A stretch of 64,000 nucleotides of DNA from Alphaproteobacteria bacterium (lineage in GTDB: Bacteria > Pseudomonadota > Alphaproteobacteria > JAAXGF01). Positions 20,177 to 53,348 of the stretch are shown here, one piece after another; the first letter of the stretch is position 1, and each line of letters starts with the position of its first letter. The notes under the pieces were generated by a model that was not told where the DNA came from, searched no databases, and was given only the letters and a program-made list of their open reading frames with translations. Location of the stretch: NCBI GenBank assembly GCA_963555825.3, contig CAUVXB020000002.1, forward strand, positions 2,528,001 through 2,592,000. Reading direction: 5' to 3'. A program made the position numbers and the translations under genes.

Positions 20177-20313
20177 ATGTCGGGTTCCGAGCGATAAGCG
20201 GACCTAGCTCGCGCGGTATCGGAAAATCATGACGTGCACGTCCGCTCACGAGCGGGAAGCGGACCTCGCCGCTGAATCCGCTGGAGGTCTGCCTGTAGCC
20301 AGGACCGGACATT
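20177..20313. repeat. Cluster of three GTCCGC-N-GCGGAC hairpin repeats
   Basis: atgtcgggttccgagcgataagcggacct, acgtccgctcacgagcgggaagcggacct, aggtctgcctgtagccaggaccggacatt. Confidence 0.7.
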
Positions 20314-20543
20314 AGGTGCTCCGTCACCAACAAGCCGTTGCCCGGCGCATCCTGCGGCCGCTTGACGATCTGCGAACGAGGCCACGTCCAGCATAGGCTG
20401 GTGAGACGGGTGGCAAGGTGAAAACGACGGGAGAGATGCGTCCGGATGGCGGAAAGTTGGGTCATCGGATGTCCGCCGGAGTATTACAGCCTCCTCTGGC
20501 GCCATGTGGTAGGATTCCAATGGATTCAAAGGTTATCTGATAA

Positions 20544-21365
20544 TTGGCGGCCGAAGGGGGCGGCATTTCGTTTACGCCAGACGCCATCGGCCTGATCGTG
20601 GCCGTCTTCATCGCCTCCGCCGTCGAGGTCGTCGAGGCCTTCACCATCGTGCTCGCCATGGGTATGAGCCGGGGCTGGCGTTCGGCGCTGGCGGGCACCG
20701 CGGCCGCGGTCGTCGTGCTGGCGCTGCTCGTCGCGCTCGCCGGCGTCGCGCTGCGCGACTATGTCAACGCGGCCTTCCTGCAATTCATCGTCGGCGCCCT
20801 GCTGCTCGTCTTCGGCCTGCAGTGGCTCAGAAAAGCGATGCTGCGCTCGGCCGGCTTGAAGGCGCTCCATGACGAGGACCTGATCTTCGCCGACGAAGTG
20901 GCGGCGGCCCGCGCCGCCGGCAGCGGTCAATTCTTCGGGCTCGACGCCTTCGGTTTCGTCGTCGCCTTCAAGGGCGTGTTGCTGGAAGGCATCGAGGTCG
21001 TCTTCATCGTCATCACCTTCGGGCTTGGGGCGGCCCACCGCGGCGTCCCCGACGCCATGTTGAGCGCGACGCTCGGCGCCGTGCTCGGCGCGCTGGTCGT
21101 CGTCGTCAGCGGCGTCGTCATCCGGCGCCCGCTGGCGATGGTGCCGGAGAACACGATGAAATACGCCGTCGGCCTGTTGCTCTCGAGCTTCGGCCTGTTC
21201 TGGGTCGTCGAGGGGTTGGGGTTCTTCGGCGCCGGCGGCGAGAGCCTGGCGTGGCCGGGCGGCACCTGGGCCCTGCCGGCGATCCTGCTCGCCTGGCTCG
21301 TCGTCACGCGGGCCACGGTGGCGATTCTGAAGCGCCTCGCACCCAGCCTGGCGGCATCGCCATGA
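20544..21365 (+). CDS. Multi-pass membrane protein, COG4280-like
   Basis: Duplicated acidic motifs VEVVEAFTIVLA and FKGVLLEGIEVVFIVITFG; FGLQWLRKA; VPENTMKY; start uncertain. Confidence 0.75.
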   Translation: MAAEGGGISFTPDAIGLIVAVFIASAVEVVEAFTIVLAMGMSRGWRSALAGTAAAVVVLALLVALAGVALRDYVNAAFLQFIVGALLLVFGLQWLRKAMLRSAGLKALHDEDLIFADEVAAARAAGSGQFFGLDAFGFVVAFKGVLLEGIEVVFIVITFGLGAAHRGVPDAMLSATLGAVLGALVVVVSGVVIRRPLAMVPENTMKYAVGLLLSSFGLFWVVEGLGFFGAGGESLAWPGGTWALPAILLAWLVVTRATVAILKRLAPSLAASP

Positions 21366-21592
21366 GATGGCTCACTGCCCCTCTGAAGTTTATCTATGAT
21401 TTGGTCGTCGGCGACTCCTGGCCGCTCACGGCCGCCGTCGTGCTTATTCTAGGCGTGGGCGTGCTGGTCATGCGACTCGATGCGCTGCTGCCCACCACCC
21501 TCGTCTTAGCCATCGCCGCTGGCCTCCTCCTCGGCTCCCCCCTGACGATCCTGATCGAAGTAAAGAGACACCTGCGGCGCACCTCGGAATGA
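21362..21592 (+). CDS. Small two-TM membrane protein
   Basis: ATGA overlap with upstream gene; MRWLTAPLKFIYDLVVGDSW followed by two hydrophobic helices. Confidence 0.7.
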   Translation: MRWLTAPLKFIYDLVVGDSWPLTAAVVLILGVGVLVMRLDALLPTTLVLAIAAGLLLGSPLTILIEVKRHLRRTSE

Positions 21593-21731
21593 GCACAGAG
21601 CGGATGGCCCGACCTGATCGGAAAAGCCTCTAGCCCGGCCGTTCGACGCGTGTCAGGAAGGCATCCAACGCCAGGGACATGGTCACATAAACTAAGCCAA
21701 ACTACATCACGCGTGAGGGCCGCAATGGGTC

Positions 21732-23417
21732 CAGCCTGTGTGAGAACGTTTGCTGCTATTTCTGTGTGGCGCGTCTTTGGGTTTGGATGATCAGTCGGGA
21801 CGTGTTTTCCGGGATTATGGATTTTCGCCGCTCGTGCGGGCTTTTCGGCCGGCTGGCGCCGTTGTGAGCCGCGATGTGGCCGGGTATAGGCGTAATTGTC
21901 GGCGCAGGGGCGCCTATGCCGTCCTGATCGCCGCGATCAGCGGGTCGATGCCCATGATGTTCATGACGCGCTTGAGATTGTAGGCCAGCACGTGCAAGGC
22001 CATCTCGGTCCTCACCCGCTTCAGCGTCTTCATCTGGAAGTGCGTCGCGCCCATCCAGGCCTTGAGGGTGCCGAAGGGATGCTCGGCCGTCTCGCGCCGC
22101 CGACGCATCGCCTCCGGGTGCTCGTCGAGCCGCCTCTCGACGGCCTCGAGAATGTGTTCGTGCTGCCAACGGGTGATGCGGCGCTGCTTGGCCGTGGTGC
22201 AGCGATGCTTGATGGCGCATCCCTGACAGGCGTTGGTCCAGTAGCGCCGCATGCTCAGCCCCCTCTCCTGGCTGGTGAAGCGGTAGACCAAACGCTCGCC
22301 GGCCGGGCAGCGATAGACATCGTCGGCGGCCAGATAGACGAAGTCCTGTTTGCCGAAGCGGCCCTTGGCCTTGGCTCCAGAGGTCAGCGGCTTAGGCAAT
22401 GTGACGGTGATGCCGGCCTCATCGCAGGCCAGAATCTCCTTGCCGTTGTAGTAGCCGCGATCGGCAACGACATCCAACTCGTCGGTCTCCAGAGCCGCCT
22501 TGGTCCGCTTCGCCATGGCTGAGAGCTGGGCGCGGTCGGTGCCCTGATTGGTCACCTCGTGGGCGACGATCAGGTGGTGCTTGGTGTCGACGGCGGCCTG
22601 AACGTTGTAGCCGACCACGCCGGAACCCCGGCCGCTCGTCGCCATCGAGCGGGCATCGGGATCGCTCAGAGAGATCTGCTGGTCCGGGCTCGCACGCCGC
22701 TCGACTTCAAGCGCCTTCAGGCGCCGCATCTCCTCCTTGAGGATCGCGATCTTGTCGGCCAGACGAGTCGTCTTGGTCGTGCGCGCCAGCGACGGCTCTT
22801 GCCGGTCGGCGCTGTCCAACTGGTCCAGATAGCGCGCAACGCTCTCCTCGATCTGCGCCACCCGCCGCGCCATCTTGGCCCGCGTGAAGTTCCTGTCCCG
22901 GCTGTTGACCGCCTTGAACTTCGAGCCATCGATCGCCACGCTCGCCTCGGCGAACAGCCCGAGTTGCCGGCACAGCGCGACGAACCGAGCGCAGACCTTG
23001 CGGATCGCAGAACCGTTGTCCTTGGCCGAAGTCGGCGATCGTCTTGTGATCCGGCACCAGCCGACCGACCAGCCACATCACTTCGACGTTGCGCCCGGCC
23101 TCCCGTTCGAGCCGCCGGCTCGACTGAACCCGGTTCAGGTAGCCGTAGATGTAAAGTTTCAACATATCCGCGGGATGATAGCTCGGCCGGCCGGTCGCCA
23201 GCGGCTCGACCCGGTCGAACCCGAGGCCGCCAAGATCGAGCTCATCGACGAAGACGTCGATCGCCCGAACCGGGTTATCATCGCCGATCCAGTCTTCCAG
23301 GCGCTCCGGAAACAACGTGCCCTGGCTGCGATCGACACCCTCCACAAAACGCTTCATCAGACCCTCCCGCCAAAGCACGAGAGAATCATAACACCATCGA
23401 CGTTTTCACACAGGCTG
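21732..23417 (-). mobile_element. IS1182-family element, copy 1
   Basis: IRs CAGCCTGTGTGAGAACG / CGTTTTCACACAGGCTG; 4-bp flanking duplication GGTC; near-identical to 51485-53168. Confidence 0.92.
21914..23357 (-). pseudogene. IS1182 transposase, frameshifted
   Basis: +1 base near 23025 (GACTTCGGCCAAG vs GACTTCCGCAAG in the intact copy) splits it into the 22707-23378 and 21914-22939 ORFs. Confidence 0.88.
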
Positions 23418-23587
23418 GGTCATATGCAGACAACGGCGGCATGATCGCGCGGGGCCCGCTTCCGAGCGGTAACCGGATAATCAGTGTGCCCGTCCCCGCA
23501 CCCGACCCGCAATCCATGCTATGTTTGCCGAAAGCGTGGGGAACTCATCCCAGGGACACGTCCGCTCAAATTAATCCCGGTTGGATA

Positions 23588-23770
23588 ATGTACATCACCA
23601 AGCCCAAGCCCAATTTCAGGCAGCGCAAGATGCGCGCTTGCTTAGGGCCGCACTGCAGGGGCAAGAACAAGTTGTTTCTCAGCGATCATCCCGGGCACCG
23701 GCTGTGCCCACGTTGCGCGGCCCAGGTAGAGAGCATCTCGCGCAGTTCAAGCGGGGCGACGGCCGCCTAA
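23588..23770 (+). CDS. Small putative zinc-finger protein
   Basis: MYITKPKPNFRQRKMRACLGPHC..FLSDHPGHRLCPRC: two Cys pairs; followed by a hairpin. Confidence 0.55.
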   Translation: MYITKPKPNFRQRKMRACLGPHCRGKNKLFLSDHPGHRLCPRCAAQVESISRSSSGATAA

Positions 23771-23804
23771 GCCAGCCCTTTCGGTCGGCCGGGTGGCGGG
23801 AATA

Positions 23805-23830
23805 GAAAGGCCCGCCGGGGGCGGGCCTTC
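23805..23830. terminator. Hairpin terminator between convergent small ORF and cspA
   Basis: AAGGCCCGCC-GGG-GGCGGGCCTT stem; T-run follows on the minus strand. Confidence 0.65.
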
Positions 23831-23855
23831 CATGGATTGTCGTCGTGTCGGTGCG

Positions 23856-24065
23856 TCAGTCGATGAGCTTGAGGTTCGCTGCCGCGGACTTGCCGTTCTG
23901 GCCACTCTGCAGTTCGTACTCGACGCGGTTGCCGTCGCTCAGGCCCATGAGCCCGGCGCGTTCGACGGCCGAGATATGGACGAAAGCGTCCTTCGAGCCG
24001 TCATCGGGGCTAATGAAGCCATAGCCCTTGACGGTGTTGAACCATTTCACGGTTCCTTGGGTCAT
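23856..24065 (-). CDS. cspA: Cold-shock protein
   Basis: GTVKWFN..KGYGFI..DAFVHISA..A.NL. Confidence 0.95.
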   Translation of the reverse strand: MTQGTVKWFNTVKGYGFISPDDGSKDAFVHISAVERAGLMGLSDGNRVEYELQSGQNGKSAAANLKLID

Positions 24066-24371
24066 GTAGTCGTTCCTTGGACGTTGTGTTGCAACCGGCC
24101 GCGCCCTTTGCGCGGCCGAGTCTCAGCTCATCGAAATCCTTGGGGTATTGTGGCTAGGTCGGCGTGACGAAGCGGGATACGCCGGGCCTTCGAATACTGA
24201 TGGCGGTCATATAGCGTCGAACTCACAGGAATGCAATGGCGCCTGACGGGCGGTCTATACTGGCGCCCCGGTGTGAGAGCCGGCGACGGAGGTTTGCGAT
24301 GGCCTCCGCAAGGCGGGGCTCGACGTGTGAGCAACACCGGCAAGCTCATCGCGTTGCCAATGTCCGGTTAG

Positions 24372-26321
<1,950 letters not shown>

Positions 26322-26325
<4 letters not shown>

Positions 26326-26732
26326 CGCCGCGACCTCCGCCGCCCCAAAGGGCCGGACGTCTCCGTCTTGGCCTCCAGCAGTTCCACCTGCATGATCAAC
26401 TCCCCGATCCGCTTCATGGCGATGTCCAGTTCCGCCTTCACCGGATCGCCCTTGCGTTCCTTGAGCGAGGCATCGATCCCGGCGATCGCCTTCTCACGCC
26501 ACTGCTCGAGCCGGAAAATCTCCACGCCCAACTGCCGCGACAAAAGTTCCACCGGCTCGCCACGCAAAAGCCGCAGGGCAACCTCACGCTTGCGCGTCAC
26601 CGTCCACCGCTGGCCAAGTCCCAGCGGGCCTGCCGGCGAAACCTGGCCCGGGGAAAACGTGGACGAGCCAAGCTCGCCCTCGTTTACCACAGGCCCATCA
26701 ACAGCAACTTTGTTCTCAAAATTGTCGGTCAT
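26322..26732 (-). CDS. IS OrfA (HTH)
   Basis: RWTVTRKREVALRLLRGEPVELLSRQLGV..KRIGELIMQVELL; RBS AAGGAGG; ATGA overlap with OrfB. Confidence 0.8.
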
Positions 26733-27043
26733 GTTCCGGTCCTCCTTGGACACTTCGATTAAGCCAATTCTGTGTCCAAGGAAATCGGGGCCGACTCACG
26801 AGGAGTTGAAGACGCTGAGGCACGTGCTCTACAACCGGTTCGAATTCTGAACGATTGGGAACCTTATTATGGTGTAAGCCGTGAGGCGCACTCGCTTACG
26901 ACGTTACTATCGGCTTCGTCCTCGCCGGGCAGTACCGCCCACTTTTCGGCAAGATCGCGCCGACTGGTCCAGTCCTCAAGCACTCCGCGATAGCTTCCGT
27001 GGGATAGCGCGCCGCGCTATGTGATCCGCGACCGGGGCAGCGT

Positions 27044-28084
27044 CTAGGGCACGGCGCCCGAGCCGCCCATCCGGTTGTCGATCAACACCTTGTCCATGTC
27101 GCGCATTATGACCTTCATGGTCTCCAGGTAGATGCGCCGCCTGGTGACGTCCTTCTGCTGCAGGTACTCCGCGTAGACCGACAGGAAGCGCTGCGGCTCG
27201 CCGGTGGCGATGGCGATCTTCTGCTCCTTGTAGCCCTCGGCCTCGTTGACGATCTTCTCGGCCTCGCCCTCGGCGCGCGCCACCACCTCGTTCAGGTAGG
27301 CCGTCGCCTCGTTGACCTTGCGCTCCTTGTCGGCGCGCGCCGCCTGGACGTCGCGGAAGGAGTCGAGCACGATGCCCGGCGGGTCGATCTTCTGGAGCTG
27401 CACGTCGGTCACGTCGATGCCGGAGCCGTATTGGTCGAGGATGCGCTGGACCAGCTCCTGCGCCTCGACCTCGATGCGGACGCGCCCCTGGGTGCGCGCG
27501 AACTCGAACCCGGACTTGCCGATGATCTCGCGCAGCGCGCTTTCCGAGGCGTCCTTCACCGTTCGGTCGGGGTTGCGGATGTTGAACAGGTACAGCCCGG
27601 CGTCCTTGATCCGCCAGAAGGTGACGAAGTTGACGTCGATGATGTTTTCGTCGCCGGTCAGCATCAGGCTTTCCCGGGGCACGCTGCGCACCAGTTCCGT
27701 GCGCCGCTCCTCGCCGCCCGAGGAAAAGCCTACTTCGGTGCGGTTGATACGCGTCACCTTCGGTCTCTGCACGTCGCCGATCGGCGTCGGCAGGTTGTAA
27801 TTGAGGCCCGGCTGGGTGGTGCCGACCCATGCGCCGAAGATCAGCGCGACGCCCTGTTCCTCGGGCTGCACCCGGTAGAACCCGGTGGCGAGCCAGCCGA
27901 GCAGCACGACGACGATGATGACCAAGATACCGCGCGCGCCGCCGACGCCGCCGGGGATCAGCCCGCGGACCCGGTCCTGGCCCTTGCGCAGCAGCTCCCC
28001 TAGGTCGGGTGGTTGCGGCCCCCGCGGGCCGCGGCCCCAGGGGCCCTGGCCGCCGCCCGGCCAGCCGCCTTGATTACCCGACAT
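27044..28084 (-). CDS. hflK: FtsH protease modulator HflK (C-terminus slightly short, no hflC)
   Basis: GPWG..PPDL, one TM, ESLMLTGDENIIDV, FRDVQAARAD, VTRRRIYLETM. Confidence 0.88.
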   Translation of the reverse strand: MSGNQGGWPGGGQGPWGRGPRGPQPPDLGELLRKGQDRVRGLIPGGVGGARGILVIIVVVLLGWLATGFYRVQPEEQGVALIFGAWVGTTQPGLNYNLPTPIGDVQRPKVTRINRTEVGFSSGGEERRTELVRSVPRESLMLTGDENIIDVNFVTFWRIKDAGLYLFNIRNPDRTVKDASESALREIIGKSGFEFARTQGRVRIEVEAQELVQRILDQYGSGIDVTDVQLQKIDPPGIVLDSFRDVQAARADKERKVNEATAYLNEVVARAEGEAEKIVNEAEGYKEQKIAIATGEPQRFLSVYAEYLQQKDVTRRRIYLETMKVIMRDMDKVLIDNRMGGSGAVP

Positions 28085-28337
28085 TTCCCATATATTCCCA
28101 GATAACCGTCATATCGACTCCGACAGTACCCAATTTTCACCGGTCATTGGAATCGTTTCACCTCCGCAGCCGTCTGACAGGCAGGTTTTGGTGAATTGAC
28201 CGGTGTTCGCAAGCCCATTTGGTCCAGTTTTTCGTCACCCAGACGCACCTCTCCCGTCAACCGACATGTTCCCAGGCTCCCGTTCAGCATCGTGGTGGTG
28301 GCCTTGGCCGCAGACCATCGATCAGGCGCGGGATTTA
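28085..28337 (-). pseudogene. IS1380-family transposase C-terminal remnant and end sequence
   Basis: 28284-28334 minus encodes IPRLIDGLRPRPPPRC*, resembling IS1380-type transposase C-termini (recalled, not searched). Confidence 0.5.
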
Positions 28338-28998
28338 CCGGTAGGCCAGCACCGATTGCACGGGAGATGTGAGGGTGGGACCGGAGCCCAGAGTTTCCCG
28401 CAGGACTGTGGCGGGGACACTTCGAATTCTTGCCACTCCACGGCGGAGAGTGTAAGGTTCGACCGTAAGGGGTGCATCTCTACTCCCCTTGCCACAACGG
28501 TTTTCAAGAAACGACTCGCCGAGCGAACCGCATGGTCCGCCACGAATCAGCCGAGTGGAACCGTGTCTACGGGGTCTGGTCGCTGAAAGAATAGTCGGGA
28601 AGGGCAATCCCCGGAGGGGCTGCCTTCCCCCGTATTCGCGACATCACCGTTGTGCTTTCACGAAACTGCGGCCGCTCCGGCTCGTTCGTGCGAGCTACGC
28701 TCGATGCGTCGGTGCGTAGCGGTCGCGATCCCGGCACGAGGTGGGTTTGCGGCTCGGACTCACGGATACCAGACGATCCGTTTAGGCATTGGCTTTTTGG
28801 CTGGTGCGAACGGTGGAATATTGTAGGGTGTTCGCTGGCACCACTTTTATGCTGATTTCCACCCAATATCGCTGATGGAAGAATAGATCTAATATAATAT
28901 TCAATTTCGTCGAAGGTTTTTCCAATCATGTGAACTTCTTGTGTGCGGCATTTTAGACTTTTCCGGCGGAGCTCATTGCGTCTGAAGGAATGCGTTTC

Positions 28999-29619
28999 AT
29001 GTCAAGCAATGGAAACACAAAGACAACCACGGCACCCGAAAACTTCGAGGAAAAAGAATTCCTTTTGGGAGAGTACGAGGCACTTCGTGCGGAACAATTA
29101 CACAATTTTCGATCGGTTAATCAATTGCATGCGCTTCAAATAACTGCAACAAGAGCGTTCTTAGGCGTTGCATTTTCCATTACGCCACTAAACTCATATA
29201 TTTTCCTTTTACCAATTTTATTGTTAATTCCTATTGCTTATCGTTTACTAAATTATCCGTTAGCAATACTAAGAATAGGAACATATATTGAGGTGTTTAT
29301 CGAACCGAAATTTGCATCATTTGGATGGGAGCACAGGGTTGAAGATTTTTGAAGTTCAAATAATTTAAATAATAAACCTTTCATATTTCTTAAACTAAAA
29401 CTTGCAGTGCAAGACTATACCATATTAACTTCATGGGTAATAATTGTTATCTGCCCATCATTATCTTATATTTATTGGACAGATGAGTTGTGGTATTTGG
29501 TTGTGATCATTGCTTTGTCAGGGACGACTTTGATCCCGGTAAGTTACCGATTGTCCCGTCTTGGAAAGATCAGATCAGAATTCAAGGAAAGGTGGAATCA
29601 CCTTGGGGAACAAACATGA
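28999..29619 (+). pseudogene. Low-GC ~4-TM membrane protein with one in-frame TGA (29350-29352)
   Basis: The 28990-29352 and 29407-29619 ORFs are in the same frame with no other stop between; EYEALRAE..RIGTYIEVFIEP..GWE. Confidence 0.65.
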
Positions 29620-29776
29620 AAAGAACGTCTCGCTACAAAGTTCCGCTCACAGTTCCCACAGTTCCGCAGACGGTATACCGATCTCGGAGTTTCCCGAGCG
29701 AACCGAGTCATGTTGAGCACGTTGCCAAACGGCACGGTCGCCTTTGAGAAGATAAGTGTACTGTCCCCGAAATTGA

Positions 29777-30184
29777 ATCATCGACGGTTGCGATGGCGAG
29801 ATCGCCCGGCTGAAACATTCCCAGAGCGAGTTCGGCGGCTGGTTCGACGCGGTCCTTGATCGGTATGCCGACGCCGTCCTGTTGTTCGGCCTGATGTGGC
29901 ACGAATTCGCTGCGACCGGCACGACCATATCCGTCGTGTTGGGGTTCGTGGCGATTGTAGGGTCGTTCCTAAACAGCTATACGGCGGACAAGTACGACGG
30001 ACTGATGGCTCGAAGGTTGCGAGGCGCCTCATACTTTCGGCTGGGCCGTGACGTTCGGGTTTTCGTCATCTTCCTTGGCGCCATCTTAAACCAGCCGCTA
30101 TTCACACTGCGTGTCGTTGCATTGGCGATGAATTTGGAAGTGGTTCGAAGGATCGTGATTTACAGGCGCGCTGCAGTGTTTTAG
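29777..30184 (+). pseudogene. 5'-truncated CDP-alcohol phosphotransferase (DIPP-synthase-like C-terminal part)
   Basis: Manual translation IIDGCDGEIARLKHSQSEFGGWFDAVLDRYAD matches the DxxDGxxAR...GxxxDxxxD signature; a TGA lies immediately upstream in frame. Confidence 0.8.
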
Positions 30185-30349
30185 CGGGCGAATGCCTGCT
30201 CTATTCAGCAGGACGCTGCTCAAGCATGACCGCTACGCAGCGTCGCTACAATCGAACCGTCAGCGCGCCGCCAGACCCAACCGAACCCTGTTCAATTTTC
30301 CGAAGGCCTTCACGTGCCCCCAATGTCCTGTGTGGATGGCTCCCGCGTT

Positions 30350-30591
30350 GCAAGGACTTTTTTCGGCGTAGCGACCTAGTCAGGTACAGTCTTGTGTCCG
30401 GCCTGTTGATGCGGTTTTGTTGAACCGCTGGCCCTGATGGTATCCGTGGATCGGGTCCCTATCTGCTTAGCGGGCTCGAACACCCAGGACATTCGTCGGG
30501 TTGTCCCGATCCCCGGTCTGACCGGTTCGCCATCACGTCTCGTCGTCCTTGCAATCGTCGAAAGGCGTTGTGCCTTCGAGAGATCAATTGG
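30350..30591 (-). ncRNA. Putative bridge/seek RNA of the IS1111 element
   Basis: Non-coding region 3' of the recombinase with segments matching target (AATGTCCT; AAGCAG) and donor (CCATC; ACACA), each pair separated by a stem-loop; RNA ends approximate. Confidence 0.65.
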
Positions 30592-31626
30592 TCATGCGGT
30601 CCCCTCAGTTGCGGGTCGGTGAGCGCGGTAGGCCTCGCCACGGGTCATGATGACCCAGGCGATCCGCGCGGCCTTGTTGGCCATGGCCACGGCGACCAGC
30701 TTGTTGGGCTTGCTTACCAGCAAGTTGGTGATCCAGGGGTGAACCTCGGGCTTGCGCCGTGCCGATTGAAGCTGTGATGTCATGCCGATCACCAGCAGAC
30801 GGCGAAGATAGCGGTCCGCCATCTTGGAGATGCGTCCCATGCGATCCTTGCCGGCGCTGGAATCGGCCTTGGGCGTTAGCCCGAGCGAGGCGGCAAACTG
30901 GCGAGCCGATGTGAACCGGTGCGGATCGGTGACCGAGGCCGCCAGCGCCGAGGCGGTGATGTAACCAATCCCCGGAATGGTCGCGAGCCGTTTGGCCAGG
31001 TCGTTGCCGCGGAACCAGGTCTTGATCTCGCCCTCGATCATGGCGACCCGGGCTTGCAACTCGCGGATCTGCTCGGCCAGGGCAATGACGATCTTGCATG
31101 CCAGCGGGGGAATGTCCGGCACCACTCCTTCGACAAGCTGATCGACGAGCCTCAGCGCGTGATGAATGCCTTTGGCCAGCACGATGCCCAACTCGGCCAG
31201 CTGGGACCGGATCATGTTGACCAGCTGGGTGCGCTGGCCGACCAGTAGATCCCGTGTTCGGTGGAGCGCCAGGACCGATTGCTGCTCGGCCGACTTGATC
31301 GCGACGAACCGCATCGTGGGGCGCGTCACCGCCTCGCAGATCGCCTCCGCATCGGCGGCGTCGGTCTTGCCGCGCTTGACGTATGGTTTGACGTAGATCG
31401 GTGGCATCAATTTCACCTCGTGCCCCAATGCCTGGAGCTCGCGGGACCAGAAGTGGCTCGTGCCGCACGCCTCGATACCGATCAGACACGGTTCCAGCTT
31501 GCCGAAGAACGGCATCATCTGGCGCCGGCGCAACGATCGGCGGACGATGACCTTGCCGGTGCTGTCAATGCCGTGGACTTGGAAAACGTTCTTGGCCAGA
31601 TCGAGGCCGACAGTGGTAACTTCCAT
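30592..31626 (-). CDS. IS110 DEDD recombinase/transposase
   Basis: GLDLAK, IEAC, KTDAADAEAI, IPGIG, GLTPKADSSAGK, VAMANKAARIAW. Confidence 0.93.
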   Translation of the reverse strand: MEVTTVGLDLAKNVFQVHGIDSTGKVIVRRSLRRRQMMPFFGKLEPCLIGIEACGTSHFWSRELQALGHEVKLMPPIYVKPYVKRGKTDAADAEAICEAVTRPTMRFVAIKSAEQQSVLALHRTRDLLVGQRTQLVNMIRSQLAELGIVLAKGIHHALRLVDQLVEGVVPDIPPLACKIVIALAEQIRELQARVAMIEGEIKTWFRGNDLAKRLATIPGIGYITASALAASVTDPHRFTSARQFAASLGLTPKADSSAGKDRMGRISKMADRYLRRLLVIGMTSQLQSARRKPEVHPWITNLLVSKPNKLVAVAMANKAARIAWVIMTRGEAYRAHRPATEGTA

Positions 31627-31721
31627 GGCGGATAGCTCCTCTTGCTCGTGGTTGATAACAACCACCACTTTGGCATCTCGGTGCCGGGAGCGGGAGCCAT
31701 CCACCCCATCTGCTTCGGGTT

Positions 31722-31882
31722 CAGACTGTGTAAAAACGTCATTCAATTCAGTTTTTCGAGTAAATCTGCTTGATCCCTGAAGATTGCAGCCTGCTAAGTA
31801 ATTGGTTTCATAAACACTGAAAATTCAACGAATGGGCTGAGATCACATTTCGAGCGATTCTCCGACGTTTTTACACAGCCTG
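31722..31882. mobile_element. 161-bp MITE with IS1182-type ends
   Basis: IRs CAGACTGTGTAAAAACGTC / GACGTTTTTACACAGCCTG (18/19); left IR identical to the IS1182 end at 51485; flanks GGTT/GGTC; AT-rich interior. Confidence 0.85.
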
Positions 31883-32051
31883 GGTCAGGAGCAAACATTG
31901 CCGGCGTAGGCGCGCGGCGTCCGCTTTGTCGCGGGAAGCAGACATTAGTGGTCAACATTGGGATTTCCTCGCCGGCGGGGTCCGCTTCCGAGCAGACAGC
32001 GGACGTCGCAGGGCAAAGCTGTCGACGCCGGCTTTTGCCATGAACGGACCC
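31883..32051. repeat. Cluster of GTCCGC-N-GCGGAC hairpin repeats at island right edge
   Basis: ggtcaggagcaaacatt, cgtccgctttgtcgcgggaagcagacatt, gggtccgcttccgagcagacagcggacgt, cggcttttgccatgaacggacc. Confidence 0.7.
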
Positions 32052-32237
32052 AAGGGCGAGTAATGCGGCGCCAATGCTTATCGGAACTCGGCCGATCGAG
32101 ACGAGCCCCCGCGGACAACCGACAAATCACAAACTGAACGCCCTCCCCGGGGCGATATGTACACGGGTCGTCACGTTGCACTTACTTCAAAGAATAGACC
32201 GCGACTGACGGTAACGTCGACCGTGCGGGGCGGGCCG

Positions 32238-32298
32238 CCTCAATCGGGCATCGTGAAGGGGTCGGGGTCGAGGAAGCGGCGCACCACGTTCTCGCTGA
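32238..32298. repeat. Direct repeat, right copy (3' end of DMFase large subunit copy 2)
   Basis: 60/61 identical to 20095-20155. Confidence 0.93.
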
Positions 32299-34474
32299 GC
32301 CGCGCGACGTTGTTGTCGTAGCCGTTGTGCGGCAGGCTCGCGGCCCAGGCGATCGAGCCGACCGAGAAGACCGCGCCGCCGCGCGCCGTCTCGAAGAACG
32401 TCATATCCGCCCGGATGTCCGGGTTTTGCGCGCCATCCATGGCTGAATGGTGGAAGCCGGTCTCGTCGGGCACCAGGTAGGTGTTTGCCGAATGGCCTTC
32501 CGAGCTGGCGACGATCAGCGTATGAGCGGGCGTGCCGAGCATCGGATCGGCCGCGTCGATCTCCGAGCCGCTGGCGCCGTCGCCGAGGATGCCGAAGTCG
32601 CCGATCACCTCGTCGTCGCCGATGCCCTCGAAGATGAAACTGGCGCGCGGATCGAAACTGGCTTCCTTGCGCCGGTAGTGGCCCGAGGCGTCGAAGCCGA
32701 CCGCGACCGTGCCGACGCCGACCAGCGCCTGAGGCGCCATGCCGAGGCGGCGCCACAGGCCGCCGTACTCGCCGGTGAACTCGAGATAGTACTCGCCGGG
32801 TTCCTCATCGCGGTAGCGGATGCCGTCCTCGGCCCGGCGCAGCTCGAGCACGCCCGGCATCGCGTCCGAGAAGGCGCAGCGCCAGATGAAGCCGTTGCCG
32901 CCGAGATAGACCAGCCGGCCGGCGCGCGCGAGATAGGCCCTCAGCCCGTCCCACATCGGCGTCGTATAGTATTCGGGATGCGCGCCGGTGATCACGGCAG
33001 CGTAGGGCTCGAGCAGCGCGACGCCCTCGTGATGCAGGTCCTCGTCGGTGATCACGTCGTAGTCGATGCCCTTCTCCTCGAGCCAGCCGAGAATGTGGGT
33101 ATCGGCGTTGAAGCCCCACAGCGGCGTCTTGGGCGCCATGTTGAGCACCGGCCGCAGCCGCGAGGCGTAGCGCACGCCGCTGGCGTCGGAATGGGTGTCG
33201 TAGGTCGAGAGGCCGAACTCCGAGTGCTCCTGCAGGAAGACGTCGCCCGGATCGAGCGTCGTCCAGAACGTCTCGGAGACCTCCGAGTAGTGCTGGTGCA
33301 GCATCCAGTGATAGTTCGAATACGCCATATAGGTCGCCGTCGAGGCCAGGAAGGCGAGCTTCGCCGTGGTCGTGCCCCGCGGCGGGCGCACGAAGAAGGT
33401 GACGTACCACTCATCGTCCTCGGCCCTGAGGCGCGCCGCGTAGACCCCGCTCGGCAGATCCTCGGGCACCTCGTAGTCGAAATCCGCCTCCCAGCCGACG
33501 TCGTAATGGTCGTCGTCGTGGAAGTGGATGGCGCCGTATTCCTGGGGTGCGTGGCGCCAGTTCTGTTCGGCGCCGGACCAGTTGAAGCCCTTGACGGCGC
33601 GCGAGGGCAGGTTGACGGCGCGCCCGTGCGCCCGGTTGGGGCCGAGGTCGCTGATCCGGTCTCCGCCGATGTCGCGCGCGAAGTCCCAGGACGCGATCAC
33701 CGAGGTGTCGCGCTCATGGGGCGCGGCGTCCCAGGCGAGCGCTACGATCTCGGCCCGTGACAAGGCACGGCCGGTCAGCCGTGGTCGATCGATCTTGCCG
33801 TTGAAGTGATTGCGCGCCCCGGGACCGCCGGCGGGGTGCGCCGCGGGCAGCGCCGCCATCACCAGCGGCGCGCCGCCGTTGGCCGCGACATCGAATGCGA
33901 TGGCGCTCGTGACGCTGGCGGCGCTGCTCACCTCGAGCGGTGTCTCGATGGGTTCCTGGAAGACGCTGAGGTCTCGCGTCGCCGCGTCGTAGGCAGCGGC
34001 GACCAGGTGCCAGCGCCGCACCGCGAGCGGCCCGCCCGTACTCACCTGGGCGACATTCCCGTTACCGTCGCCGAGCCGCATGGCGAGCGCGCCGGCGTCG
34101 TCGATCAACAGGGCGAAACCGCTCGCCGTCTCGCCGATCCAGTTGGCGATCAGTCCCTGCTCGCCCCTGTCGGGTGTCGTCGGAAAGACCCAGGCCTGCA
34201 CGGTGAAGCTTCCCGGCGCGGCGATCGCCGGGACATCCGGAACGATCACGTAGGAGCCGGCGACCGTCGGCTGCGTCCGGCCGGGGTATTCGCCATTGAA
34301 CGGCGCGGCGATCTCTGCTTCGCGATAGATGCCGTGGTCGGGATCGTCATCGCCGCAGATGACGCGCACCAGGTCGGCGCGATAGCGCTCGGCACCATAG
34401 GTGCTCACCTTGATGCTGAGTGTATCGCCCGGCATCACGCTCCAGGCGTTTGCGTATCCAACGACTTTCTTCAC
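32240..34474 (-). CDS. N,N-dimethylformamidase-like large subunit, copy 2
   Basis: EYGAIHFHDDD, YMAYSN, GLSTYD.H, GAHPEYY, YLGGNGF, GSEID; clear paralog of 17439-19652. Confidence 0.88.
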   Translation of the reverse strand: MKKVVGYANAWSVMPGDTLSIKVSTYGAERYRADLVRVICGDDDPDHGIYREAEIAAPFNGEYPGRTQPTVAGSYVIVPDVPAIAAPGSFTVQAWVFPTTPDRGEQGLIANWIGETASGFALLIDDAGALAMRLGDGNGNVAQVSTGGPLAVRRWHLVAAAYDAATRDLSVFQEPIETPLEVSSAASVTSAIAFDVAANGGAPLVMAALPAAHPAGGPGARNHFNGKIDRPRLTGRALSRAEIVALAWDAAPHERDTSVIASWDFARDIGGDRISDLGPNRAHGRAVNLPSRAVKGFNWSGAEQNWRHAPQEYGAIHFHDDDHYDVGWEADFDYEVPEDLPSGVYAARLRAEDDEWYVTFFVRPPRGTTTAKLAFLASTATYMAYSNYHWMLHQHYSEVSETFWTTLDPGDVFLQEHSEFGLSTYDTHSDASGVRYASRLRPVLNMAPKTPLWGFNADTHILGWLEEKGIDYDVITDEDLHHEGVALLEPYAAVITGAHPEYYTTPMWDGLRAYLARAGRLVYLGGNGFIWRCAFSDAMPGVLELRRAEDGIRYRDEEPGEYYLEFTGEYGGLWRRLGMAPQALVGVGTVAVGFDASGHYRRKEASFDPRASFIFEGIGDDEVIGDFGILGDGASGSEIDAADPMLGTPAHTLIVASSEGHSANTYLVPDETGFHHSAMDGAQNPDIRADMTFFETARGGAVFSVGSIAWAASLPHNGYDNNVARLSENVVRRFLDPDPFTMPD

Positions 34475-34504
34475 GGCTCAATTCCTCCTCGGCACGCAAA
34501 ATCG

Positions 34505-34804
34505 CTATGCGATCACCTCGCCCGTCACCGCTTCCCAGCGCAATCGGAACACTTCCCAGGCGGCGGCGTAGTAATCGTCGAAGACGCGGTCCTCGAAGAG
34601 CTCCAGCTTGGCGCCCCGGACCGTCGGCATTTTCGCCACCGTCCACTCGCGGCCGCGCTTGGTGCAGACCAGGATGTAGCGTTCCGCCATCGGTCCCAGG
34701 CGCAAGCGGTTGACCAGCAGCGTGAGCTCGGGGCCGTAGGGTCCCCCAGGGTTCTGCCGGTACTCCTCGACGAGGTCCTTTCTCGATGTGTCGATCGCGT
34801 ACAT
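34505..34804 (-). CDS. N,N-dimethylformamidase-like small subunit, copy 2
   Basis: NPGGPYGPEL..LVNRLR..RYILVCTK..VFRLRW; RBS AAGGAGG. Confidence 0.75.
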   Translation of the reverse strand: MYAIDTSRKDLVEEYRQNPGGPYGPELTLLVNRLRLGPMAERYILVCTKRGREWTVAKMPTVRGAKLELFEDRVFDDYYAAAWEVFRLRWEAVTGEVIA

Positions 34805-34983
34805 ATGCAATTGCCTCCTTCAACGTCCGAGCATCGGATGACAGTGGCCCGGCAAACCGCGTTCGATGATGGCTTTCCGGCGCCGCCCGGGCATCCGGCG
34901 ACGCTGTCGCGAAACGCCGCCGTGGCCTACAATGCGGGCAGTTTATCAGACTCTGGATCGGCCGGGTCGGTGGGAGGATCAAT

Positions 34984-35745
34984 ATGTCTGGCGTTCTGCT
35001 CGTGACCGGCGGCAGCCGGGGAATCGGCCGCGACGTCGCACTGCGCGCCGGCGAACGCGGCTGGGACGTCGTGGTCAATTACACGGCGAGCCACGACGCG
35101 GCCGAGACCGTCGCCGCCGAGGTCCGGTCGCACGGCCGCCGCTCGATCGCCGTACAGGCCGACGTCGCCAAGCACGACGACGTCGAGCGCCTATTCGCGA
35201 CGATCGACGGCGAATTCGGCCGGCTCGACGGTCTGGTCAACAACGCCGGCGTCGGCCGCAGCCAGGGCCCGTTCGAGGACTGCCGGCCCAAAGACCTGCG
35301 CGAGACCTTCGAGGTCAACGTGTTCGGCCTGTTCTACGTCTCGCAGGCGGCGGTCCGGCGCATGTCGACCAAGCACGGCGGGTCGGGCGGGTCGATCGTC
35401 AACGTGTCGTCGGCGGCGGCGCGCACCGGCGGCGTCAACGCGTTCATCGACTATGCCGCGTCGAAGGGCGCGGTCGACACGATCACCATCGGTCTGGCCA
35501 AGGAACTGGGCCCGGTCGGCATCCGCGTCAACGCCGTGCGCCCGGGCGTCACGGCGACTGAAATGCTCGAACATGTCCGCGAGTCCGACCCATCGTGGCT
35601 CGACGACGTGGTTGCGACCATGCCGATGGGCCGCATCGGCGAGGTCCGCGAGATCGCCGATCCGATCCTGTGGCTGTTGTCCGCCGAAGCGTCCTACGTC
35701 ACCGGCACGATCATCGACGCCTCGGGCGGGCGGGCGACGCCGTGA
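34984..35745 (+). CDS. Short-chain dehydrogenase/reductase
   Basis: TGGSRGIG, LVNNAG, YAASK. Confidence 0.92.
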   Translation: MSGVLLVTGGSRGIGRDVALRAGERGWDVVVNYTASHDAAETVAAEVRSHGRRSIAVQADVAKHDDVERLFATIDGEFGRLDGLVNNAGVGRSQGPFEDCRPKDLRETFEVNVFGLFYVSQAAVRRMSTKHGGSGGSIVNVSSAAARTGGVNAFIDYAASKGAVDTITIGLAKELGPVGIRVNAVRPGVTATEMLEHVRESDPSWLDDVVATMPMGRIGEVREIADPILWLLSAEASYVTGTIIDASGGRATP

Positions 35746-35785
35746 ACGACCGCAACGAAGCCGGACACGCTGGAGGAGGAAAGTC

Positions 35786-36742: not shown

Positions 36743-36846
36743 CAGCGCATCGCGTTTTCGAGACGCCGGCTCAGGGCTTCCTGGCGCGCAGAGGGAAACT
36801 CGACGGGACGGGCGGCAGCGGCGGCGGGTAGTGGTAGAAGTATTCG

Positions 36847-38926: not shown

Positions 38927-39060
38927 ATTCAATCTCCAAAACCGCGGCTGCGCAGATGGCTTCCCGCAATCGCTTGCGACAGTATCACGAGAACCGCCCC
39001 AAATCGAAAGCCGCGCCCTTTGGGATGTAGTGACTCCGAATTCGGCCTTGAACGGGCGAA

Positions 39061-39666
39061 CTAGACCGCGTCGATGCGCTCGATGGCGCCGCCGTGCAGG
39101 CGGTAGAAGGCGTTCTGGGGCTGGTCGAGGGCGAGCGTCTCGGCGGGGCTGAGGCCCAGATAGTGGCCGCGGAAGACGCGGCCGACCGCGCCGTGCGCGA
39201 CGGCGATGAGCGGTCCGCCGCCCGGCGCCAGGGCGTCGAGCCAGTCGCCGACGCGCGCCGCCAGCATGGCATAGCTCTCGCCGCCGCCCGGCGGCACGTA
39301 GTTCCAGTGGTGGTGGGTGTCCTGGCGGCGGTGCGCCAGCGCGCCGGGGTCGCGCGCCTCGATCTCGTCGAGGGTCAGGCCGTCCCAGGCGCCCCAGGTC
39401 TGCTCCTGCAAGCGGTCGTCGATCGGGATGTCTTCGGGCGCCAATCCCAGTTCGGCGCGGATCAGCGCCGCGGTCCGCCGCGTGCGGCCGAGGGGACTCG
39501 CCACCATCTTGACGTCGCCGTCGACGAGTCGGGCGAGCGCGCGGCCCATGGCGCGCGCCTGGTCCTCGCCGCGTGGCGTGAGCCGCGAATCGAGATGGCC
39601 CTGCATGCGCCGCTCGCGGTTCCACTCGGTCTCGCCGTGGCGGACCAGATAGATCACGCGGTCCAT
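39061..39666 (-). CDS. Histidine phosphatase (phosphoglycerate mutase family), copy A
   Basis: LVRHGETEWN, SPLGR, GGES, AHG. Confidence 0.9.
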   Translation of the reverse strand: MDRVIYLVRHGETEWNRERRMQGHLDSRLTPRGEDQARAMGRALARLVDGDVKMVASPLGRTRRTAALIRAELGLAPEDIPIDDRLQEQTWGAWDGLTLDEIEARDPGALAHRRQDTHHHWNYVPPGGGESYAMLAARVGDWLDALAPGGGPLIAVAHGAVGRVFRGHYLGLSPAETLALDQPQNAFYRLHGGAIERIDAV

Positions 39667-39713: not shown

Positions 39714-40322
39714 TCATCGCCCGGCCGCGTCGATGCGCTCGATGGCGCCGCCGTGTAGGCGAAAGAATGCGTCCTGCGGCTCGTCGACGGTGAGCGTCTC
39801 GGCCTCGGAGAGCCCCGCGTAGCGCCCACGCAGCACGCGCCCCACCGGGCCATGGGTGATGGCGACGATGCGCCGGCCGGGCGCGAGGTCGTCGAGCCAG
39901 CCGCCGACGCGCGCGGCCAACGCGGCGTGGCTTTCGCCGCCCGGCGGCTCGTGGGTCCAGTGCTGCCGGGCGTCCCGGCGGCGGCGCGCCAGCTCGCCCG
40001 GGTCGCGCGCCTCGATCTCGTCGAGCGTCAGCCCGTCCCAGGCGCCCCAAGTCATCTCGTTGAGCCGGTCGTCGGCCGTGTGTTCGGCCGCGAAACCCAT
40101 CGCGTGACCGATGATCTCCGCGCTTCGCCTGGCGCGGCCCAACGGGCTGGCCACCATGTCGAAGCCGTCGCCGTCGCCGATCAGCCCGGCGAGCGCCGTG
40201 CCGACCCGCCGAGCCTGGTCCTCGCCGCGCGCGGTGAGCGGCGAATCGAGTTGGCCCTGGATGCGGCGGTCGCGGTTCCACTCGGTCTCGCCGTGACGGA
40301 CGAGGTAGATCAGGCGGTCCAT
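39714..40322 (-). CDS. Histidine phosphatase (phosphoglycerate mutase family), copy B
   Basis: LVRHGETEWN, SPLGR, GGES, THG; tandem paralog of copy A. Confidence 0.9.
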   Translation of the reverse strand: MDRLIYLVRHGETEWNRDRRIQGQLDSPLTARGEDQARRVGTALAGLIGDGDGFDMVASPLGRARRSAEIIGHAMGFAAEHTADDRLNEMTWGAWDGLTLDEIEARDPGELARRRRDARQHWTHEPPGGESHAALAARVGGWLDDLAPGRRIVAITHGPVGRVLRGRYAGLSEAETLTVDEPQDAFFRLHGGAIERIDAAGR

Positions 40323-48049: not shown

Positions 48050-48161
48050 CTCCGATACCCCCTAGAACCGGTTTGGCGCTCCCCGTAACGCCTTCGTCCC
48101 GACCCTACTATGCCGGATTTACACTGTCACCGCGGCCAGCCGTCGGGAGTCGGTGGCCGGG

Positions 48162-51201: not shown

Positions 51202-51484
51202 TTGAAGCGCCGAGCTCCGGCTGTTGCAATGCTGACCAGTCGCCGCCGAATGATACCCGGTAGCGACGCGAGATTGGTGGAAATTCGATACGCGGCGTGC
51301 GCCGGAGCATCGGCGTTGTCACCTCGGCGAACTGCCTGATCGACCGCGGGATTCCGTGCCGGTCCTATGAAAACCGTTCGACACCGTCAACCACCAAACG
51401 ATTGTCGAACAGTATAGCACGAGGCTTGGCCAAGAGGGCCGGGACGGCGGCCGAGCCGTTGTCGTCGAATGGCGGCTTAGGACC

Positions 51485-53168
51485 CAGACTGTGTAAAAAC
51501 GTCGATGGTGTTATGATTCTCTCGTGCTTTGGCGGGAGGGTCTGATGAAGCGTTTTGTCGAGGGTGTCGATCGCAGCCAGGGCACGTTGTTTCCGGAGCG
51601 CCTGGAAGACTGGATCGGCGACGACAACCCGGTTCGGGCGATCGACGTCTTCGTCGATGAGCTCGATCTTGGCGGCCTCGGGTTCGACCGGGTCGAGCCG
51701 CTGGCGACCGGCAGGCCGGCCTATCATCCTTGCGATTTGTTGAAGCTCTACATCTACGGCTATCTCAACCGGGTTCAGTCGAGCCGTCGGCTCGAGAGGG
51801 AGGCCGGGCGCAATGTGGAAGTGATGTGGCTGGTCGGCCGGCTGGCGCCGGATCACAAGACGATCGCCGACTTCCGCAAGGACAACGGCCGTGCGATCCG
51901 CAAGGTCTGCGCCCGGTTCGTCGCGCTGTGCCGGCAACTCGGGCTGTTCGCCGAGGCGAGCGTGGCGATCGATGGCTCGAAGTTCAAGGCGGTCAACAGC
52001 CGGGACAGGAACTTCACGCGGGCCAAGATGGCGCGGCGGGTGGCGCAGATCGAGGAGAGCGTTGCGCGCTATCTGGACCAGTTGGACAGCGCCGACCGGC
52101 AAGAGCCGTCGCTGGCGCGCACGACCAAGACGACTCGTCTGGCCGACAAGATCGCGATCCTCAAGGAGGAGATGCGGCGCCTGAAGGCGCTTGAAGTCGA
52201 GCGGCGTGCGAGCCCGGACCAGCAGATCTCTCTGAGCGATCCCGATGCCCGCTCGATGGCGACGAGCGGCCGGGGTTCCGGCGTGGTCGGCTACAACGTT
52301 CAGGCCGCCGTCGACACCAAGCACCACCTGATCGTCGCCCACGAGGTGACCAATCAGGGCACCGACCGCGCCCAGCTCTCAGCCATGGCGAAGCGGACCA
52401 AGGCGGCTCTGGAGACCGACGAGTTGGATGTCGTTGCCGATCGCGGCTACTACAACGGCAAGGAGATTCTGGCCTGCGATGAGGCCGGCATCACCGTCAC
52501 ATTGCCTAAGCCGCTGACCTCTGGAGCCAAGGCCAAGGGCCGCTTCGGCAAACAGGACTTCGTCTATCTGGCCGCCGACGATGTCTATCGCTGCCCGGCC
52601 GGCGAGCGTTTGGTCTACCGCTTCACCAGCCAGGAGAGGGGGCTGAGCATGCGGCGCTACTGGACCAACGCCTGTCAGGGATGCGCCATCAAGCATCGCT
52701 GCACCACGGCCAAGCAGCGCCGCATCACCCGCTGGCAGCACGAGCATGTTCTCGAGGCCGTCGAGAGGCGGCTCGACGAGCACCCGGAGGCGATGCGTCG
52801 GCGGCGCGAGACGGCCGAGCATCCCTTCGGCACCATCAAGTCCTGGATGGGCGCGACGCATTTCCAGACGAAGACGCTGAAACGGGTGAGGACCGAGATG
52901 GCCCTGCACGTGCTGGCCTACAATCTCAAGCGCGTCATGAACATCACGGGCATCGACCCGCTGATCGCGGCGATGAGGACCGCATAGGCCTCTCTGCGCC
53001 GCAAATTGCGCCCATATCCGGCCAAATCGCAGCTCACACCGGCGCCAGCCGGCCGACAGGTCCGCACGAGTGGCGAAAATCCTTAATCCCGGAATACCCG
53101 CCGCGACGGATCATCGAAGCCAAAGACGCGCCGTACAGATCACGCAGCAAACGTTCTTACACAGTCTG
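51485..53168 (+). mobile_element. IS1182-family element, copy 2
   Basis: IRs CAGACTGTGTAAAAACG / CGTTCTTACACAGTCTG; 4-bp duplication GACC (51481-84, 53169-72). Confidence 0.93.
51545..52987 (+). CDS. IS1182 transposase, intact
   Basis: SSRRLERE, PDHKTIADFRK, AIDGSK, GYNVQ, ADRGY, EHPFGTIK. Confidence 0.93.
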   Translation: MKRFVEGVDRSQGTLFPERLEDWIGDDNPVRAIDVFVDELDLGGLGFDRVEPLATGRPAYHPCDLLKLYIYGYLNRVQSSRRLEREAGRNVEVMWLVGRLAPDHKTIADFRKDNGRAIRKVCARFVALCRQLGLFAEASVAIDGSKFKAVNSRDRNFTRAKMARRVAQIEESVARYLDQLDSADRQEPSLARTTKTTRLADKIAILKEEMRRLKALEVERRASPDQQISLSDPDARSMATSGRGSGVVGYNVQAAVDTKHHLIVAHEVTNQGTDRAQLSAMAKRTKAALETDELDVVADRGYYNGKEILACDEAGITVTLPKPLTSGAKAKGRFGKQDFVYLAADDVYRCPAGERLVYRFTSQERGLSMRRYWTNACQGCAIKHRCTTAKQRRITRWQHEHVLEAVERRLDEHPEAMRRRRETAEHPFGTIKSWMGATHFQTKTLKRVRTEMALHVLAYNLKRVMNITGIDPLIAAMRTA

Positions 53169-53348
53169 GACCGACAACGGACTCCCAACGATTGTCTCTC
53201 CGGTCTCCGTTTTCGGGCGTCAAGCGGACAATGGCGGCACGCAGGACCGCGGCGAACTCCGCCCGGCGGCGAACGAAGCCTTGCGCGACGGGGCACCGGG
53301 TGTGGTAGCTTCGGGCCCCGAGGAGGGCGACGCACGACGGGGCGATCG

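Follow-up and report, generated by a model that had tools for sequence, protein, structure and literature searches.

Extragenic palindromic repeats resembling REP and BIME families as probable safe-haven targets of IS1182- and IS110-family elements in an alphaproteobacterial genome

What are the short palindromic repeats that edge the accessory DNA of an Alphaproteobacteria bacterium, and what keeps them company with so many mobile elements? The question arises from a stretch of 64,000 nucleotides (contig CAUVXB020000002.1, positions 2,528,001 to 2,592,000; hereafter the window), in which an earlier note had described about 11 degenerate hairpin units and proposed that they may be the recombination sites of a gene-capture system. 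We followed the units through the whole genome (two contigs, 6.04 Mb, 65% G+C) and found that they are one real, extragenic repeat family. We further conclude that they are probably repeats of the kind known as repetitive extragenic palindromic (REP) sequences and bacterial interspersed mosaic elements (BIMEs), serving as safe-haven targets for insertion sequences (IS) of the IS1182 and IS110 families rather than for gene capture.

In the course of events that we propose, an old and dispersed extragenic mosaic of four weak hairpins, about 61–62 bp apart, would offer a harmless landing site in many copies. A transposase of the IS1182 family would insert its own element and two derived families of miniature inverted-repeat transposable elements (MITEs) within the loop of a terminal hairpin, either the first or the last, with a single orientation and a duplication of 4 bp, and several IS110-family elements would recombine into the arm of the same hairpins. 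Because insertions at the units break no gene, they would persist and pile up; the IS copies would then drive duplications, inversions and patchwork regions, and through such rearrangement the units would come to lie at the edges of accessory DNA. This safe-haven logic, together with any function that the repeat may have for its host, is what we infer.

The repeat family and its mosaic element

By number alone, palindromes with exact six-base arms are unremarkable in this genome: the window holds 2 matches compared to 0.76 expected, which is not beyond chance (2 or more in 18 of 100 shuffles), and the 18 matches genome-wide, 11 of them at one spacing, fall inside the range of control palindromes (1–158). 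Only their concentration at one spacing hinted at a family, and it is on the family, not on the arm pattern, that the case depends. A profile seeded from the exact-arm matches at one spacing and iterated once found 112 unit loci at 10 bits or more, compared to 1 in the reversed genome that served as control, and 174 compared to 14 at 8 bits or more, so that the genome scan named as a check in the earlier note bears the family out. A copy number of 112 agrees with that of REP families (about 100 or more per genome). Units are also extragenic as REPs are, 107 of the 112 lying outside putative open reading frames (ORFs) in a crude ORF set based on third-position G+C content that covers 67% of the genome, which fits the absence of units from core operons remarked on before. 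They fall into 85 clusters distributed over both contigs (61 with one unit, 22 with two, 1 with three and 1 with four), with neighbours spaced 56–64 bp apart in 26 of 27 cases and exactly 61 or 62 bp apart in 16. The consensus of the 48 units used to build a covariance model has a 25-nt core with complementary arms of 6–8 bp, and is thus a short imperfect palindrome in the 20–40 bp range of REPs. An 11-mer survey of non-ORF DNA was also tried and set aside, its signal being swamped by unmasked IS copies.

Within the window, the covariance model scored six units, at 31976–32010 (42.3 bits), 20236–20270 (37.8 bits), 20175–20209 (33.9 bits), 23450–23484 (33.5 bits), 31915–31949 (32.8 bits) and 53201–53235 (27.1 bits). 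All six stand at places listed before, and nothing else in the 64 kb scored better than an expectation value (E) of 0.3. Two further listed units, at 20285 and 32030, proved to be the degenerate last hairpin of a larger, mosaic element; between direct reading, the covariance model and a profile of that mosaic, each listed place holds what had been described there.

This larger element emerged when window 20140–20340 was used as a query, which returned 29 related places, 14 of which were aligned. The alignment runs from a first hairpin through a spacer, two central units and more spacers to a last hairpin, such that the units are sub-units of a mosaic element of about 160 bp with four hairpins and conserved spacers, the first and last hairpins being a 24-nt variant with a four-base centre. 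A mosaic profile of 162 positions matched 60 loci at E < 1e-3 compared to none in the reversed genome, and 23 of the 60 span at least 120 positions. The linkers are conserved over the 14 copies and in another genome, and in this and in its regular spacing the element agrees with BIMEs. Among 18 near-complete copies (153 pairs), mean identity is 59% and maximum identity 77%, unlike the insertion sequences of the same genome, which are 96–100% identical. The mosaic copies are old, and the element is not moving now; with such divergence and no duplication at its borders, it does not qualify as a MITE itself.

Beyond this genome the family is unevenly spread. At E up to 1 the covariance model gave 119 matches in the genome itself, 94 in a genome of another genus of the same family, 32 in a genome of another family of the class, 13 in one further genome and 0–8 in the other 27 of 31 genomes. 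At E up to 0.01, three of the 13 genomes of the order gave 66, 30 and 3 matches, and the rest at most 1. An exact degenerate pattern run over 185,579 species genomes returned 19 stretches, mostly from alphaproteobacterial metagenome-assembled genomes (MAGs), among them Bradyrhizobium, Methyloceanibacter and Xanthobacteraceae records, together with a few MAGs labelled as other phyla; this tally undercounts, as the pattern catches only 15 units of the genome from which it came. Two mosaic copies searched by blastn against 72,556 plasmids had no match at E 1e-3 and chance-level matches of 32–35 nt at E up to 10. A literature search found no description of the repeat, which cannot show that none exists, and a full-text search with four unit pieces of 9–10 letters returned primer lists only.

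The distant genome of the other family holds a locus with the same four-hairpin architecture beside a MITE end, and its mosaic copy shares a mean of 64% and a maximum of 74% identity with copies from the present genome, and is thus no more distant from them than they are from one another. This closeness prompts another reading, in which the mosaic would be a conserved integration platform held near one consensus across families, with its terminal hairpins as a shared att-like site for DDE (IS1182) and DEDD (IS110) recombinases and with genes between occupied pairs being movable. Such a platform might persist because selection favours a decoy on which IS insertions are spent, or because an enzyme acting in trans maintains it. 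We regard this reading as unlikely.

Mobile elements in the terminal hairpins

The evidence that the hairpins are IS targets comes foremost from a 1.68-kb element that belongs to the IS1182 family by its Pfam domains (DUF772, DDE_Tnp_1 and DDE_Tnp_1_6) and by its plasmid matches, which are annotated as 'IS1182 family transposase' (best match 72% identity for the transposase). Its end pattern occurs 65 times in the genome, in almost all cases with half a hairpin directly after the end. These 65 ends resolve into 18 pairs 1684–1686 bp apart, 5 pairs 161–162 bp apart (MITEs) and 19 solo ends. Identical 4-bp flanks stand on both sides of 19 of the 23 pairs, 16 with one tetranucleotide (taking the reverse complement for two MITEs whose orientation could not be set) and 3 with other matching tetranucleotides. 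Because these variants match on both sides, the four bases represent a duplication of the target, to which the hairpin halves belong as well.

Position and orientation are equally constrained. Among 36 mosaic elements with a left end, 20 abut an IS1182-type end (21 if one mutated end is included). Where the abutting end is of the full-length type, as it is in 15 cases, it is invariably the transposase-proximal one, so that insertion is orientation-specific; at least 7 other mosaic elements keep an intact, uninterrupted first hairpin. Another MITE family, whose terminal repeat is related, accounts for 16 ends and occupies the last hairpin of 8 of the 34 mosaics with a right end, and a second IS1182-family gene, situated between two clusters, is probably its parent. 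Insertion of IS1182-family elements into the hairpin loop is therefore specific in sequence, position and orientation and generates a 4-bp duplication, a moderately new detail for the family.

The same preference appears in distances. An intact unit lies within 100 bp of 22 of 30 IS1182-family copies, compared to 1 of 84 IS3 copies, 0 of 70 IS630 copies and 17 of 2000 random non-ORF positions, in keeping with the earlier suggestion that the units attract mobile elements. The overall IS load is very high: the 84 IS3, 70 IS630 and 30 IS1182 copies are all longer than 1 kb, and several IS110-family lineages and one IS256-family element are also present. Across 30 relatives, nearly all of them fragmented MAGs, the IS1182 transposase appeared as fragments only, in three.

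In the window, the units and their inserts are arranged as follows.

20151–20312, plus strand: complete mosaic element (profile positions 1–162, 131.6 bits; aligned with 13 other copies), containing the 3′ half of a first hairpin, units 20175–20209 and 20236–20270, and an intact last hairpin at about 20283–20316
21715–21731, plus strand: 5′ half of a terminal hairpin, closing with one copy of the 4-bp target duplication (pre-insertion site reconstructed)
21732–23417, minus strand: IS1182-family IS of 1686 bp (Pfam DUF772, DDE_Tnp_1 and DDE_Tnp_1_6; identical 4-bp flanks), with its transposase broken into two ORFs (21914–22939 and 22707–23378)
23418–23487, plus strand: second duplication copy, 3′ half of the split hairpin and unit 23450–23484, a truncated mosaic (profile positions 1–62; 23426–23487 by the composite profile)
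30316–30321, plus strand: first bases of the 5′ arm of a terminal hairpin, bordering an IS110-family element on its left side (junction identical in 5 of 5 full copies); the alignment cannot decide whether they are part of the element instead
30322–31715, minus strand: IS110-family element of IS1111 type, 1394 bp, with a DEDD transposase (Pfam DEDD_Tnp_IS110 and Transposase_20) and subterminal inverted repeats
31716–31721, plus strand: rest of the 5′ arm and the loop of the twice-split hairpin, between the two inserts (direct reading)
31722–31882, no strand assigned: MITE of 161 bp with the terminal repeats of the IS1182-family element (one of the five MITE pairs of the genome; paired ends; flanking tetranucleotides differ at one base)
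31883–32050, plus strand: 3′ half of the twice-split hairpin and a nearly complete mosaic (profile positions 2–155, 59.6 bits, at 31892–32044), with units 31915–31949 and 31976–32010 and a degenerate last hairpin near 32022–32050
51467–51484, plus strand: one half of a degenerate terminal hairpin; a copy of the 4-bp duplication forms its end
51485–53168, plus strand: IS1182-family IS of 1684 bp (Pfam; related proteins annotated as IS1182 family), with an intact transposase of 487 amino acids (51524–52987) that has 100% protein identity to 12 other copies in the genome
53169–53235, plus strand: second duplication copy, the other hairpin half and the weak unit 53201–53235 (27.1 bits, E 2e-4 in the window)

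The three split units described before are thus real: the IS1182-family copies at 21732–23417 and 51485–53168, which form a 97% inverted repeat, are each framed by two hairpin halves and a duplication of 4 bp, and the hairpin at 30316 is interrupted twice, by the IS110-family element and by the MITE.

The IS110-family element in the window has five full copies in the genome with 99% identity and the same junctions in all five, which would agree with its having inserted within the 5′ arm of the terminal hairpin. A unit lies within 100 bp of 2 of the 5 copies and within 300 bp of 4. Four more IS110-family lineages lie between or inside units, bringing the number of lineages in or beside units to at least five. 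The target of an IS110-family element is chosen by a guide RNA. Members of the family are said to be prominent among REP-targeting insertion sequences, and both this targeting and the RNA guidance have reportedly been described in the literature; by analogy, the elements found here may be RNA-guided as well.

Could the transposon itself have made the family? The hairpin halves would then belong to the IS1182-family element as its outer ends, or would be what an extinct MITE left behind, as footprints or relics. The similar half-site beside nearly all 65 IS and MITE ends would suit this origin, as would the first bases of the IS end, which resemble the 3′ arm of the hairpin, and relatives of the transposase (67–68% identity) on Sinorhizobium and Methylorubrum plasmids have similar flanks at those ends that the end pattern matched (3 of 6 ends, in 3 loci). 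However, the 4 bp beside the IS are duplicated, with three variant tetranucleotides matched, which places the IS ends inside them, and the flanks differ greatly between IS copies that are 96–100% identical internally. Intact hairpins and whole mosaics free of any IS exist, including 20151–20312 and the 7 or more intact first hairpins; the relative with 94 units at E up to 1 has fragments of the transposase only; and the mosaic copies are alike at a mere 59% on average. An origin from the transposon is accordingly very unlikely.

Structure, gene capture and the accessory region

Several observations weigh against the interpretation of the units as REP/BIME-like insertion targets. Compensatory changes were found in neither stem: 81.8% of cells pair in the outer stem, where 500 of 500 shuffles pair at least as well, and 83.8% in the inner stem, a value reached by 62 of 500 shuffles. 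When seven window units were folded as single-stranded DNA, z ranged from +0.37 to -2.07 and fell below -2 in only one. All units of a cluster share one strand in 20 of the 24 multi-unit clusters, whereas BIMEs alternate, although strand calls are less certain for weak, near-palindromic units. Gene context is only mildly skewed, with 13 of 39 IS-free clusters between convergent genes compared to a background of 21% in the crude gene call.

Nor was an enzyme found that would mobilise the units. The genome has three loci for Y1 transposases (PF01797, at C2:1867017, C1:1325246 and C2:2727747), and each is bracketed by a different palindrome of its own, the best unit score nearby being 14.3 bits (E 0.045) at about 900 bp. 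The units therefore fail as REPs in the strict sense, which ties them to a REP-associated tyrosine transposase (RAYT), and, as far as Y1 transposases go, the HUH nuclease that the earlier note had suggested looking for is not associated with them. Among the palindromes at the Y1 loci there is one GTAG-type REP, with about 42 genomic occurrences of its core, compared to 17 and 52 for the cores of the other two.

Finally, metagenome reads from four runs, all short contigs, were compared with window 17300–37000, and none of the listed joints represents an empty-site allele of an IS1182 or IS110 copy. Insertion is consequently deduced from the duplications and from paralogous intact sites, not from polymorphism. 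In the same runs an IS3-family copy at 25364–26798 is polymorphic, position 25363 being joined to 26799 in 2 of the 4 (shorter side 183–191 letters), and this IS3-free joint is the only well-supported one among those listed.

The absence of covariation and the weak folding, together with a search of the window that returned no Rfam family at the gathering score, indicate a sequence family with a palindromic consensus and not a demonstrably conserved fold; structure may matter less than sequence in the units. The word 'hairpin', used of them from the start, is borne out by the palindromic consensus but generous in view of the one unit in seven with z < -2. The same data bear on whether the arrays are structured-RNA genes or an RNA signal, such as a small RNA, a terminator or attenuator, or a degenerate array like those of clustered regularly interspaced short palindromic repeats (CRISPR). 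A repeat of 25–28 nt with a regular period of about 61 bp does recall CRISPR, the consensus is palindromic, clusters are mildly enriched between convergent genes, and RNA runs contain part of the region. However, in addition to the weak fold and the lack of an Rfam match, the 'spacers' keep their sequence from locus to locus and even from genome to genome, contrary to those of CRISPR arrays, and no T run follows the hairpins in the sequences read. We give an RNA role very little credence.

Gene capture, as first proposed, would have the hairpins act as recombination sites that move genes or small operons by means of a recombinase encoded elsewhere, with their use by IS elements being secondary. 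Six ordinary genes or gene pairs do lie between two unit clusters 1–3 kb apart, namely the COG4280 pair in the window, a luciferase-like monooxygenase, an ankyrin protein, a sulfotransferase, a zinc alcohol dehydrogenase and a CBS protein; clusters are clumped, with 27 neighbouring pairs less than 8 kb apart; and the COG4280 pair, which had been likened to a cassette, is present twice in the genome. Its two copies, however, share 95% DNA identity over window 20486–21601 only, where homology ends 170 and 114 bp from the nearest units instead of at a fixed position within them. Units are absent from within 1.5 kb of the second copy (best score 13.2 bits, E 0.12) and from the orthologues in three relatives, and other paralogous segments of the surrounding 12-kb patch likewise end away from units. 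Mobile elements occupy many of the intervals between close clusters: 15 of the 27 pairs enclose a member of one of four mapped IS families, and 6 of 11 ORFs taken from the other pairs encode transposases of further IS.

The machinery of gene capture is equally elusive. The 85 clusters are scattered over both replicons without arrays of genes and sites, the window contains no integrase, and none of the 45 tyrosine-recombinase (PF00589) matches in the genome falls in it. Pfam annotation of 41 window ORFs returned transposases only as candidate site-specific recombinases beside units, serine recombinases not having been searched genome-wide. Among the joints listed for the four runs, there is no circle or deletion of the COG4280 pair, which is weak evidence as the contigs are short, and none removes the IS1182 copy, the IS110 copy or the 12-kb patch described below, which is no evidence of absence. 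A tyrosine-recombinase gene broken by one internal TGA (C1:766046–766543) lies about 185 bp from a complete mosaic and an IS1182 copy; as it is one of 45 such genes, this proximity could be due to chance. Altogether, gene capture is not supported; it is the least credible of the explanations and extremely improbable.

The patch in question spans 12 kb and is bounded by direct repeats at 20055–20155 and 32199–32298 (84–101 bp, 87–89% identity). It has a mosaic element at its start and ends 155 bp after another. Both repeats are copies of the last codons and downstream bases of a DMFA2_C-family gene on the minus strand (32240–34474), which is faced by a 73%-identical paralogue at 17355–19652. 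Genes of the patch at 20486–21601, 24378–25375, 27042–28329 and 29777–30194 have second copies elsewhere with 88–95% DNA identity, and comprise the COG4280 pair, an MreB-like gene, an SPFH/HflK-like gene and one unannotated piece; these second copies make the patch look like a mosaic of segmental duplicates or of copies from a related strain. In one run, a 1088-letter contig matches 20544–21310 with its first 321 letters foreign to the window, and in another a 476-letter contig fits from 20173 on after 20 unlike letters, such that variant junctions may exist just left of the COG4280 gene (about 20223–20543) and at the first unit.

Outside the patch, four to five tandem repeats of 39 bp lie at 38159–38353 inside a multicopper-oxidase gene on the minus strand (37331–39625), and two histidine-phosphatase genes stand in tandem at 39061–39666 and 39714–40322 with 76–85% DNA identity. 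The stretch of the window is present in runs of nine studies, sponge metagenomes included.

Relation to known repeats and insertion sequences

The units most resemble the REPs and BIMEs of E. coli and Pseudomonas, in that they are short, imperfect, extragenic palindromes in about 100 or more copies that build mosaics with regular spacing and conserved linkers, and that serve as preferred, position-specific IS targets. They differ in flanking no RAYT gene, in facing mostly the same way, in their weak and non-covarying hairpins and in the lack of a GTAG head. Intergenic mosaic palindromic repeats are also known from other alphaproteobacteria, as RIME in rhizobia and as Bru-RS in Brucella, the latter being a hot spot for IS711; the likeness here is one of general description and not of compared sequences. 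With integron attC sites and gene cassettes the units share only imperfect palindromes able to flank single genes, while they lack an integrase in the window and an array, do not coincide with breakpoints and are scattered over two replicons.

Similar in habit, among published REP classes, are the CGTC REPs, which are likewise alphaproteobacterial, lack a dedicated transposase, vary between lineages and are thought to be ancient and possibly decaying (PMC3733652). They are defined there by stems of 8–9 bp starting with A-T pairs, loops of 4–5 bases, a short CCA-like tail and head-to-head dimers (PMC3733652), whereas the units have arms of 6–8 bp, a loop of 9–13 bases, a different tail and head-to-tail arrays at 61–62 bp. 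Measured by that text description, as distinct from the consensus figure, they are not CGTC REPs. The earlier note had held that a match to a known REP family would count against its proposal; the units are indeed REP-like, but fit neither the GTAG nor the CGTC class as published.

REPs are documented as specific targets of IS elements of five families (PMC1525189). The elements of the present genome behave like the REP-targeting IS1397, ISKpn1, ISPpu9, ISPpu10, ISRm19, ISRm22 and IS621, of which every or nearly every copy reportedly sits at one position of an extragenic palindrome; the main user here, however, is of the IS1182 family, which is not among the five families listed in PMC1525189. 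Some IS1182-family members do target palindromes or hairpins (PMC4923244), and the staphylococcal IS1272 and TnSha1 share hairpin insertion with our element. IS1272 reportedly shows no primary-sequence specificity and cuts bluntly in the stem, with partial deletion of the hairpin and no duplication (PMC4923244). The element described here, in contrast, enters the loop, prefers one tetranucleotide, keeps a fixed orientation and duplicates 4 bp.

These findings reveal no new kind of system, but a new family of REP/BIME-like repeats without a RAYT. They explain why the accessory, rearranged DNA of an IS-rich genome is edged by one small repeat, namely as the landing place of site-specific insertion sequences, and they set the IS1182-family element of this genome against the structure-only, duplication-free targeting of IS1272. 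In this genome, no fewer than five lineages of the IS110 family, two of the IS1182 family and two families of MITEs compete for one family of hairpin targets, a natural case in which the choice of targets by DDE transposases could be studied next to that by RNA-guided DEDD recombinases.

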